Positions 202 through 41,423 of a stretch of DNA of 41,423 nucleotides are shown here, piece after piece. The stretch's first letter is position 1. Each line of letters starts with the position of its first letter. Source of the DNA: a virus (lineage: Duplodnaviria; Heunggongvirae; Uroviricota; Caudoviricetes); the IMG/VR virus record IMGVR_UViG_2728369188_000008, positions 1 through 41,423 of that record. One strand, given 5' to 3'. The notes beneath the pieces are model-generated. The model searched no databases. It was not told where the DNA came from and worked only from the letters and a program-made list of their open reading frames with translations. Both the position numbers and the translations under genes were made by a program.

Positions 202-242
202 GAGTGCTATCTCCGAATATGGAATCGAACCTGCAAATCAGG

Positions 243-6915: not shown

Positions 6916-7061
6916 ATCTGTATGTTTTTTATATGAATTTATTTTTTGCAGGGGGGGCATTGTTTGGTAGGTGAGAGATCTGAATTGCTATGTTTAGTGA
7001 GTTGTATCTATTTATTTTTCAATAAATACAATTGGTTATGTGTTTTGGGGGCGATCGTGAG

Positions 7062-39090: not shown

Positions 39091-39093
39091 CAA

Positions 39094-39117
39094 GGCGACT
39101 AAGTCGTCTTTTTTATT
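39094..39117 (+). terminator. Intrinsic terminator after the tailspike gene
   Basis: GGCGAC-TAA-GTCGTC hairpin (one G-U pair) followed by TTTTTTATTT. Confidence 0.65.
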
Positions 39118-39128
39118 TGGAGATAGAA

Positions 39129-39470
39129 ATGCCTCAATTCTTTAACTCTTCTACGCCTGTCACGTCTTATGTAGCGTATCTGAGCGGAATCGTAGCACCA
39201 TCATTCCAGCTGTCGGTATCAGGACCTGGCACCCAACCGACTGGTCACTGCACCAACAGGCGGCGCGAGCGCCATCATGGGGTACAACGCCGCGATAACC
39301 ACCAACCTGATTACAGTGAACGAATCACCTAATGGTACGGGAGGTGTGCTGAAAGTAACAAACATCGGCCCCGGCAACGTGCACGGATGGATTCCCGCAG
39401 GAAAGTATGTGCGGATCAGGACAGTAGCAGCCAGCGGTACGCCGACCTTCACTTATGTGAGGGGGGGAAG
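39129..39470 (+). pseudogene. Possible decayed coding remnant with frame break and G7 homopolymer
   Basis: Two overlapping frames (track ORFs 39117-39332 and 39277-39648) each protein-like for a stretch (e.g. TGGVLKVTNIGPGNVHGWIPAGKYVRIRTVAASGTPTFTYV); run of seven G at 39461-39467. Confidence 0.3.
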
Positions 39471-39477
39471 AAGTGCT

Positions 39478-39573
39478 TCAATAATCGTTATCCACATCAT
39501 CAGCCGCCGACCTGAATATCAGCCAGGCGGCGATCACAAACACCAATGCAACCCCACCAATTGCCAACCACAT
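39478..39573 (-). CDS. Candidate 31-aa single-pass membrane peptide
   Basis: Minus-strand ORF MWLAIGGVALVFVIAAWLIFRSAADDVDNDY with one hydrophobic helix; weak RBS. Below ORF-track cutoff. Confidence 0.25.
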   Translation of the reverse strand: MWLAIGGVALVFVIAAWLIFRSAADDVDNDY

Positions 39574-39708
39574 AGACACCCCCGCTTCGACAATCTAAAT
39601 CTCCTTGCTTCTCATGGTCTTTTCAATTCGTGCATTCGATCTTCTTGATCAAATTCACTGATCGATATTACTGTATATGCATACAGTAATCATCAGGAGG
39701 GACAAGCG

Positions 39709-39948
39709 ATGCCCCGAGACTACGACATTCCATATGCTTTCACGCTAGCCATCACACCAAACGCCAGAGGTGTGCAGGTCGTCGCCACATCAGTATTCCG
39801 CCGTGAACTACACAAGCTTAATCACGACTGGACTCTGCAGCGCTGCAATGAGTGGATAATTAGCAGGCAGACGTTCTTCGCGGACATCACCGAAGGTGAT
39901 TCAGTTGATGGTACTTACGCGCTACGCAACATGGGGAGGGTTCTCTAA
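39709..39948 (+). CDS. Hypothetical protein (79 aa), possibly ImpC-like leader gene of a decayed mutagenesis operon
   Basis: Good RBS CAGGAGGGA; stop overlaps start of the umuD-like remnant (TAATG). Confidence 0.45.
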   Translation: MPRDYDIPYAFTLAITPNARGVQVVATSVFRRELHKLNHDWTLQRCNEWIISRQTFFADITEGDSVDGTYALRNMGRVL

Positions 39949-40267
39949 TGGGATTTCCTTCACCGGCAACTGATTATGTTGAAGAACGCATTAACCTCAA
40001 CCGCATATTCATACCCAATCCAGCGAACACCTTCATGATTGAGACATCGACCGGCTGCATTCTGGTTGACAGGGTGGCTAAGGTTTCGCCTGGCGATTTG
40101 GTTGCGTTCCAGATGGAGGCAATCCCATGCTTGGAAAATGGTACCCGAAGCACCTGATGACGGATGACGGTTTGATAGAGGGTGAGCAACTGGAAGAGGT
40201 AATAGTGCTGGGTGCGGTGACGGTGGAAGTGCTGACGCTGGATGAGAAGTGGAGGCCGACTATATAG
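39948..40267 (+). pseudogene. umuD/impA-like (peptidase S24) remnant, truncated and frameshifted
   Basis: Begins MGFPSPATDYVEERINLN, resembling UmuD around the Cys24-Gly25 cleavage site; the GDSM active-site Ser region is missing; C-terminal similarity (EEVIVLGAVTVEV) continues in another frame from about 40125. Confidence 0.55.
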
Positions 40268-40271
40268 GGGA

Positions 40272-41423
40272 TTACTCCCCATCAATCCAGTCCGCCCACC
40301 ATTGCATCATTTCTCTGCGCTTATCGAGATACTGAGCATGGTTGTAAATTCCACGCACAGATCCGCCGTTGGCATGTGCCAGTTGCACTTCAATAGCGTC
40401 AGCAGGCCATTCGTGCTCGTTCATAATCGTGCTGAATTCATGCCTGAATCCGTGACCGCTTTCCAGACCCTCATAGCCGATTTGTTTGATCACAAGTAGA
40501 ACCGCGTTCTCGCAGATTGGCTTCTTCTTATCGTTGCGCCCGGCAAAAACAAACTCTGATACTGGTTTGGTGATGGAGCTTAGCGTAGTGAGAAGTTCAA
40601 CCACCTGGTCTGACATCGGGACCACATGAATTTTGCGTCCCTTCATCACACTGGCGTCGATGGTGATAATCCTGTTTTCAAAATCGACGTTCTTCCATAG
40701 CATGGAACGAAGCTCTTTCGTTCTTAGGGCTGTGTAGCGTAAAACTTTGGTCGCAATGAGCGATACGATACTTCCTGAAAATGTTGCCAGTGCTTTGTTG
40801 AATGCAGGGATCTGGTCTGCAGGAAGAAACGGGAAGTTCTTCTTGCGGTATCCCTTCATGGCGTCAGCAAGGTCAGGTGCTGGGTTATATTTAGCCCTGC
40901 CGGTGACAATAGCGTAACGGAAAACCTCGCCGCATCTTCTGCGGGCTTTGTTGGCTCGCTCCATTGCACCGCGATCTTCGAATCTGCGGATTACTTCCAG
41001 CAGTTGCATCGGCTCAATATCCTGAATCTCAAGGCCGCCGATGATGGGTAAAATGTCGTCATCAAACATTTTGGCAAGTTCAGTTGCATAGCCTACTGAC
41101 CAGACTTGCTTCTTGTGCTCGTACCATTCCTTGTAAATCGCACTAAATGAATTGTTGTTAGACGAAGCCTTTTTCGCCTTTACCGGATCGATGCCAACCG
41201 AGATGTCTTTCCTAGCGGTCCATGCTTTATCCCTTGCTTCCTGCAAAGTCATAAGCGGATATTTTCCGACGGTCAGGATTTTCTCCTTACCGTCAATCTT
41301 GTAGCGAAGCTGCCATACCTTTTTCCCGGATACAGGGACATAAAGGTACAGGCCATTACCATCGAGAAGGCGGTATGGTTTTTCTTTCGGCTTTGCTGCT
41401 TCAATCTGCTTAACGGTGAGCAT
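40272..41423 (-). CDS. int: Tyrosine integrase (P4-type)
   Basis: 383 aa; N-terminus MLTVKQIEAAKPKEKPYRLLDGNGLYLYV typical of P4-family integrases; C-terminal catalytic region with R...HGFRH...Y context; start codon is the last 3 nt of the window. Confidence 0.9.
   Translation of the reverse strand: MLTVKQIEAAKPKEKPYRLLDGNGLYLYVPVSGKKVWQLRYKIDGKEKILTVGKYPLMTLQEARDKAWTARKDISVGIDPVKAKKASSNNNSFSAIYKEWYEHKKQVWSVGYATELAKMFDDDILPIIGGLEIQDIEPMQLLEVIRRFEDRGAMERANKARRRCGEVFRYAIVTGRAKYNPAPDLADAMKGYRKKNFPFLPADQIPAFNKALATFSGSIVSLIATKVLRYTALRTKELRSMLWKNVDFENRIITIDASVMKGRKIHVVPMSDQVVELLTTLSSITKPVSEFVFAGRNDKKKPICENAVLLVIKQIGYEGLESGHGFRHEFSTIMNEHEWPADAIEVQLAHANGGSVRGIYNHAQYLDKRREMMQWWADWIDGE

Follow-up and report, generated by a model that had tools for sequence, protein, structure and literature searches.

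Phage P1 HumD is a phage-encoded UmuD' homolog that corresponds to an already activated, shorter UmuD (PMC7092418), and small LexA-controlled operons encoding regulators are known from prophages, including the Gifsy phages, 186 and N15 (PMC3121763). Here we compare with these systems the interval between the tailspike and integrase genes (positions 39117-40271) of a 41,423-nucleotide (nt) stretch of viral DNA, IMG/VR record IMGVR_UViG_2728369188_000008, referred to below as the window, which represents a P22-like (Lederbergvirus) Escherichia coli prophage. We consider it probable that the interval consists of a dead tail-fibre relic followed by a LexA-controlled phage cassette with a likely HumD-like role, the second gene of which is broken in this copy. 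A previous description made from the letters alone (the sequence-only reading) had regarded the interval as the eroded edge of a mutagenesis operon or cargo. The cargo part of this proposal held, as did the UmuD-like and frameshifted nature of the last gene, but in place of an operon edge we found a complete and conserved phage cassette.

The first gene of the cassette is intact and encodes a 79-amino acid (aa) protein. It matched phrog_3893 of the PHROG database over its full length (E value 1.6e-21, residues 1-79 to profile positions 1-79 of 79), a family of 710 clusters at 90% clustering found in Enterobacterales, nearly all of them 79 aa long and lacking a Pfam domain. Searches of Pfam and NCBIfam with the 79-aa protein gave no match. 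An ImpC/DinI-like identity was also considered and was rejected, because there was no match to the DinI/ImpC Pfam families and the protein belongs to phrog_3893, a family of its own. The AlphaFold2 (AF2) model, with a mean predicted local distance difference test (pLDDT) score of 92.4, has the order H-S-H-H-S-S (H, helix; S, strand), suggesting a winged-helix-like topology. The ratio of nonsynonymous to synonymous substitution rates (dN/dS) was 0.107 for the E. coli allele compared with a metagenomic relative. The exact 79-aa sequence has roughly 350 recorded occurrences. The gene is coupled to the following one through the stop/start overlap TAATG, as had been noticed from the sequence.

The cassette appears to be driven by a sigma-70 promoter carrying a predicted perfect LexA box. 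The box, TACTGTATATGCATACAGTA (39669-39688; core 39671-39686), encloses the -10 element T(T)ACTG(T) (39668-39674), contains the sole CTGT-N8-ACAG in the 41-kb window and lies 22 nt before the ATG of the 79-aa open reading frame (ORF). In phage HK140, Pantoea phage AH07 and Klebsiella phage RothC, a perfect box is likewise located 20-25 nt before the ATG, with TTGATC about 17 nt ahead of TACTGT. The same layout recurs in most of the 59 species-level loci obtained in a genome survey seeded with the peptide MGFPSPA[TQ]D. Where the 79-aa gene is present (about 40 of the 59 loci), the box is found 272-291 nt before the ATG of the UmuD'-like gene, and where it is absent (about 13 loci), the distance is 32-38 nt, much as in P1 humD. 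This conservation suggests that the -10 element is the left half-site of the operator. A scan for promoters missed the site, TACTGT being a weak -10 element under the rule that it applied. One related locus, L013, has TTAATC in place of TTGATC in the -35 element (equivalent to window position 39647), together with an intact UmuD'-like gene. The cargo located divergently upstream of the cassette differs between phages, and consists of dinI in HK140 (L002, 1936-2202), a gene for an OpgC-like acyltransferase in AH07 (L017, 1146-2258), and the tail-fibre relic in the window.

The second gene encodes a 106-aa UmuD'-like protein in its intact form, present in the complete genome of E. coli NRZ105822 and annotated there as 'S24/S26 family peptidase'. 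The repaired or intact sequence matched phrog_3469, 'UmuD-like protein' (106 positions), with an E value of 6.5e-20 (residues 1-97 to positions 1-97). Residues 2-53 aligned to UmuD 25-73 and UmuD' 1-49, with residue 2 corresponding to UmuD Gly25. The proposal that the gene starts at the UmuD autocleavage site was therefore correct, the sequence M-GFPSPA matching Gly25, the first residue of UmuD'. Equally, the catalytic Ser region is absent as had been described, and an 11-residue gap covers the Ser60 loop in comparison with both UmuD and HumD. A Lys of the protein aligned with UmuD K97; in the alignment to UmuD the Ser-Lys dyad is incomplete, and neither a pro-segment nor a Cys24-Gly25 cleavage site is present. 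The 69-aa fragment encoded in the window scored 13.8 bits with Pfam Peptidase_S24, below the cut-off of 23.3. The AF2 model (pLDDT 76.8) gave as its best structural matches UmuD' 1UMU and 1AY9 over the whole length (E value 1e-4, template modelling score 0.60-0.64), followed by the C-terminal domains of LexA and lambda cI. Similarity to the UmuD family is thus borne out by the aligned N-terminus of UmuD/UmuD', the phrog_3469 profile and the structural matches to UmuD'.

Homologs of the UmuD'-like protein in Pantoea, Erwinia, Raoultella and Klebsiella are 106-107 aa long from 94% down to about 40% identity, with a range of 104-112 aa in the family, and dN/dS for the gene was 0.059 (E. coli allele compared with a metagenomic relative). 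Because of this constant length and low dN/dS, the start at the cleavage site and the missing Ser loop are the normal state of the family, maintained by purifying selection, and not a product of erosion.

In the window copy, the change of frame that had been noted near 40125 is explained by a single missing A at 40117, giving GATGGAGGC compared with GATGGAAGGC in the intact alleles. Intact versions are present in relatives, as the L013 locus matches the window haplotype throughout the UmuD'-like gene but has the A, and the gene in NRZ105822 is whole. The broken allele occurs with 100% identity over 39091-40271 in four independent assemblies, three at argW and one at sbcB/dacD. The 69-aa product is encoded on 51 contigs, and the exact 106-aa product on 192, with close variants on a further 25. 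The deletion, the sole lesion of the cassette, is a genuine and recent pseudogene allele and not an error peculiar to the window. It truncates the product to 69 aa, and only the 79-aa protein and this N-terminal fragment can be produced from the window copy.

Disruptions, at varying positions, are also seen in four of the 59 species-level loci. In P0022 (a jgi contig), the 79-aa-like and UmuD'-like proteins are fused in a single ORF, and a different 1-nt deletion lies within about 3 nt of the site deleted in the window. In several Pantoea genomes (P0159-P0161; P. vagans, P. dispersa and P. agglomerans) the same 46-aa C-terminal piece is called as a separate gene. The gene may have a recurrent break point near codon 57. 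A coupling hairpin formed by a 23-nt inverted repeat, which would pair the start codon of the UmuD'-like gene (39948-39970) with the site of the frameshift (40106-40128), was considered and attributed to chance, the folding z score being 0.53 relative to shuffled sequences.

From this anatomy we infer how the cassette would operate. LexA would sit on the box containing the -10 element of the TTGATC-N17-TACTGT promoter, and DNA damage would lead to LexA cleavage and derepression of the promoter, resulting in production of the 79-aa winged-helix-like protein and, in intact alleles, also of the 106-aa UmuD'-like protein by translational coupling. The latter would be made 'already cut' and without the Ser60 loop, so that RecA-assisted self-cleavage would be neither needed nor possible. 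By analogy with HumD, its most likely role would be to act on the host UmuC/RecA-filament machinery at an early stage of the SOS response, either as a partner supplied in finished form or as a modulator. In the work of McLenigan et al. in 1999, HumD reportedly complemented UmuD' and bound UmuC and RecA filaments.

The part of the interval upstream of the cassette contains two overlapping plus-strand ORFs (39117-39332 and 39277-39648), as had been reported. Frame 1 of 39220-39459 matched the extreme C-terminus of tail-spike/tail-fibre-like proteins in tblastn and PHROG searches. It shares 62% identity with gp152 of Erwinia phage Bue1 (742 aa), which ends in FVRAEEVLQ, and the match to phrog_28908 covers profile positions 666-742 of 742. 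A HMMER scan with the relic returned 134 matches, nearly all at the very end of proteins of about 140-800 aa, the best being P0173 (360 aa, 82% identity). Relatives of P0173 are present in phages, with partial matches that include genes annotated as tail fibre or baseplate.

Removal of one C at GGACCTGG (around 39224) and one G from the G7 run repaired the relic to a reading of 117 aa. Residues 32-52 of this reading are identical to residues 33-53 of P0173, and residues 53-117 correspond almost perfectly to P0173 residues 295-360, including the terminal GEEVLQ. Relative to P0173, about 241 codons are missing internally, with the deletion joint near 39285/39286. The alignment of the repaired reading to P0173 establishes the relic as the dead remnant of a 360-aa tail-fibre-like gene, in which about 241 internal codons were deleted before two +1 frameshifts arose. 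The proposed decay is thereby confirmed for the first 360 bases of the interval, which are degraded coding sequence. The origin of the first 31 codons (MPQFF...) is uncertain, with a weak match to phrog_16217 only (E value 1.6e-5), and tblastn with the N-terminal 57 aa gave no meaningful match. A relationship of this N-terminus to that of Bue1 gp152 was rejected, since 182 of 500 shuffled sequences reached the same score.

The G7 run is not unusual by itself, as the window contains two such runs (the second at 6951-6957) compared with about 1.7 expected, and its significance comes only through comparison with relatives. Among near-identical E. coli loci, 9 of 11 have G7, and two (L007 and L012) have G6; a G10 version is found in P0167. 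The run was correctly identified as a slippage site, since its length varies between G6, G7 and G10 in near-identical prophages and the variation breaks the frame. The G6 form restores the reading TFTYVRGEEVLQ with a stop at 39482-39484, giving a 68-aa ORF ending in EEVLQ. The G6 loci regain the 68-aa ORF, but the relic still contains the internal deletion and the first frameshift. The run apparently slips without consequence, within a gene that is dead for other reasons.

The hydrophobic 31-aa peptide that had been noted on the opposite strand is also present (39478-39579). The ORF can start at an ATG at 39573 (31 aa) or a GTG at 39579 (33 aa), and a C5 tract, G5 when read on the minus strand, lies 6-10 nt before the ATG, in the position of a Shine-Dalgarno sequence. 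Gene callers report the exact peptide on 80 contigs, and a variant with two substitutions exists. Outside its own prophage lineage, no homolog was found in PHROGs, Pfam, NCBIfam, PADLOC, the phage collection or the fetched loci, and tblastn with the 31/38-aa peptide gave no meaningful match. A sigma-70 promoter scan found no site for the ORF, and a search of Rfam for an antisense RNA found no element. The ORF is an unverified, putative orphan gene. A type I toxin or a known small membrane protein was considered and rejected, in the absence of any PHROG, NCBIfam, Pfam, PADLOC, tblastn or Rfam match. The coordinates of all features are collected in Table 1.

Table 1. Features of the interval between the tailspike and integrase genes (window coordinates).
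Feature	Position	Strand	Details or basis
Tailspike intrinsic terminator	39092-39119	+	8-bp stem and 3-nt loop (39092-39110), T run
Tail-fibre-like pseudogene relic	39129-39484	+	P0173 alignment, tblastn, PHROG, HMMER
G7 homopolymer, +1 relative to ancestral frame	39461-39467	+	Comparison with relatives
Orphan 31-aa ORF, MWLAIGGVALVFVIAAWLIFRSAADDVDNDY	39478-39573	-	One predicted membrane helix, acidic tail
C5 tract (G5 on minus strand)	39579-39583	+	C6 in L007, L012 and L013
Predicted SOS promoter and operator	39645-39688	+	-35 TTGATC (39645-39650), 17-18 nt spacer, -10 in LexA box
Intact 79-aa gene, phrog_3893	39709-39948	+	AGGAGG at 39695-39700; PHROG match, AF2 model
UmuD'-like pseudogene, phrog_3469	39948-40267	+	69 aa (39948-40157) and out-of-frame 46-aa tail (40127-40267)
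1-bp deletion, AA to A in GATGGAAGGC	40117	+	Also in L008, L009, L014 and L015

The decay visible in this interval could be read in other ways. In one, the pair formed by the 79-aa gene and the UmuD-like gene is the decayed stub of an impCAB/umuDC-type operon that has lost the N-terminus, the catalytic Ser and umuC. The second gene is indeed UmuD-like, shortened and frameshifted, and impCAB also has a small first gene. However, proteins of the shortened, Ser-less form make up a conserved family whose length is constant and which is under purifying selection, and a LexA box and promoter stand directly ahead of the cassette. In addition, no umuC or other polymerase gene is annotated or called beside the cassette in those relatives for which gene tables were examined, and the 79-aa protein has no DinI/ImpC Pfam match. 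These results largely refute such an origin, which we consider highly improbable. It is extremely unlikely that the genes are intact in the real phage and that the change of frame at 40117 and the G7 run arose through faulty sequencing or assembly. Homopolymers are error-prone, and the UmuD'-like gene is intact in one complete E. coli genome, but the lesion at 40117 changes AA to A and does not involve a long homopolymer. It also recurs with 100% identical flanks in the four independent assemblies, with its product on 51 contigs. As for the run, most loci (9 of 11) have G7, and in the G6 allele too the relic retains its internal deletion and first frameshift. The G and C tracts might instead be phase-variation switches for the 68-aa C-terminal fragment or for the 31-aa membrane peptide, as both vary among near-identical prophages, and the C5/C6 tract occupies the Shine-Dalgarno position of the 31-aa ORF. 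This is very unlikely, given that the promoter scan found no promoter-like site, that a terminator lies just upstream, that the peptide has no homologs outside the lineage, that the tracts are short (5-7 nt) and that the Rfam search found no element.

A different question is what a functional cassette would do. It could act other than as a subunit of polymerase V, by modulating RecA filaments, UmuD/UmuD' turnover or repressor cleavage, and would then tune prophage induction or the host SOS response, like DinI-like and antirepressor genes. We regard this as unlikely, although several observations point towards it: small regulators are encoded in LexA-controlled operons of the Gifsy, 186 and N15 prophages (PMC3121763), dinI lies divergently beside the cassette in HK140, the 106-aa class scores below the cut-off of the HumD model, the first gene shows tight coupling and its product a predicted fold of DNA-binding type, and both genes are naturally fused in P0022. 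Against it, the N-terminal 35 residues of the second protein are almost identical to those of UmuD', suggesting shared partners, and this P22-like phage has its own ant/arc/mnt region. More speculatively, and with a similarly low probability, the 79-aa protein and the Ser-less 104-112 aa mini-UmuD' would form a distinct phage SOS module, a two-component modulator as opposed to a shorter HumD; if so, carrying it would be costly under some conditions, and this would account for the recurrent breaks in the window, in P0022 and in the 46-aa Pantoea pieces. We favor a LexA-controlled cassette with a HumD-like role, preceded by a dead relic, and several points weigh against this preference. With the HumD model, the protein of the window family scored 39 bits (cut-off 120), and over residues 1-37 only. 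The Ser retained by P1 HumD is lost here together with its loop, and HumD-like behavior may not hold. The putative function of the 106-aa class is assigned by analogy. The survey seed builds the shared start at the cleavage site partly into the sample, and the differences in homopolymer length among assemblies could in part be sequencing errors.

Lying between the genes for the tailspike and an IntS-type integrase, the interval is mosaic prophage cargo of an ordinary kind. A Megablast search with the interval against phages gave no match, distant blastn matched only at the junction of the 79-aa and UmuD'-like genes, and Rfam and PADLOC searches gave no match. The integrase gene (int) is the next gene after the UmuD'-like gene, 4 nt away on the other strand. 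A palindrome, GGGGATTACTCCCC (40268-40281), spans this 4-nt gap and the overlapping convergent stop codons of the two genes, and might be a weak bidirectional terminator.

The attachment site had been expected within 40158-40271. This was a prediction only, and the site lies outside the window, on the opposite side of int. The window begins with the stop codon of a xis/TorI-like gene (1-3) and ends with the ATG of an IntS-type int (41421-41423), and gives the impression of a provirus cut at gene boundaries, lacking about 250 bp of the circular map of the phage, among them the attP core. The int DNA is 96-98% identical to int of CUS-3, Sf6 and HK620. In HK620 and CUS-3, the attP/attL core is found upstream of int, in the space separating int from xis. 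L008 shares 100% identity with the window over 39091-40271, and its tRNA-Arg(CCU) gene argW lies 162 nt past the int start codon, which answers the suggested comparison with host tRNA genes. The core TGGTGTCCCCTGCAGG, derived from the 3' end of argW tRNA-Arg, had no match in the whole window with 3 mismatches allowed. Together, the core position in HK620 and CUS-3, the argW gene of L008 and the absence of the core show that the attachment site of this IntS-type integrase is at argW, upstream of int and beyond the window.

A 16-nt sequence, GGAATCGAACCTGCAA, identical to the segment of the argW T-arm adjoining the attachment core, occurs at window positions 222-237 (L004, 1677-1692). Its position is upstream of xis, with about 300 nt between it and the expected core position, and it recurs at the corresponding location in HK620; it may stem from displacement of part of the tRNA-derived attachment region. 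The block comprising the 700-aa tailspike, the relic and the SOS cassette occurs at three chromosomal sites with different integrase modules: the dacD side (L001, L010-L014 and L016), ybhB-bioA (L012) and argW (L007-L009 and L015). In L001 the int, of HK140 type, is at the opposite end of the prophage; even so, the cassette is followed by about 55 nt that are similar to the 3' end of the IntS gene (window 40272-40326).

We recommend that the annotation of the interval list a tail-fibre pseudogene, a phrog_3893 gene under predicted LexA control and a UmuD'-like gene with a frameshift, and that the attachment site be placed past int. Many temperate phages of Enterobacterales carry such a cassette, predicted to be SOS-inducible, adjoining the attachment region. 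For the first gene this spread amounts to >700 protein clusters, and the second was recovered at 59 species-level loci. The cassette is common, and P1 HumD is its sole experimentally studied relative. If the short class alters host mutagenesis or the timing of the SOS response, lysogeny would affect the supply of mutations under DNA-damaging antibiotics.

Comparison with known systems identifies P1 HumD as the nearest characterized relative of the UmuD'-like protein. Like the dinI-antirepressor-irsA operons of Gifsy type, it consists of small genes outside the immunity region under LexA (PMC3121763), here predicted; the gene content is different, and no antirepressor activity is known for phrog_3893. 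Homology to Gifsy-type antirepressors was considered and rejected, as no sequence link was found. With E. coli UmuD/UmuD' (S24; 1UMU, 1AY9), the second protein shares the nearly identical N-terminal 35 residues of UmuD', a predicted fold closest to UmuD' and, as predicted here, LexA control. Unlike UmuD, the window family lacks the 24-residue pro-segment, the cleavage site, the catalytic Ser and a downstream umuC.

P1 HumD (NCBIfam NF051876) is likewise a phage UmuD homolog that starts at the UmuD' N-terminus (MGFPSPA), has no umuC partner and has a LexA box immediately upstream (19 nt before humD in the P1 record). HumD is 129 aa long and retains both Ser and Lys, whereas proteins of the window family are 106 aa long, with the Ser loop removed by the 11-residue gap. 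In addition, P1 lacks the 79-aa gene and has lxr divergently upstream of humD, and the window copy is frameshifted. HK140 gp27-gp28, RothC and AH07 show the same arrangement as the window, with a gene of 79-80 aa followed by a UmuD'-like gene, a promoter and LexA box, and a location between the tail-fibre genes and att/int. Their genes are annotated only as hypothetical, UmuD-like or 'repressor'. HK140 gp28 differs in belonging to the long HumD class (221.8 bits), whereas RothC and AH07 contain the short class.

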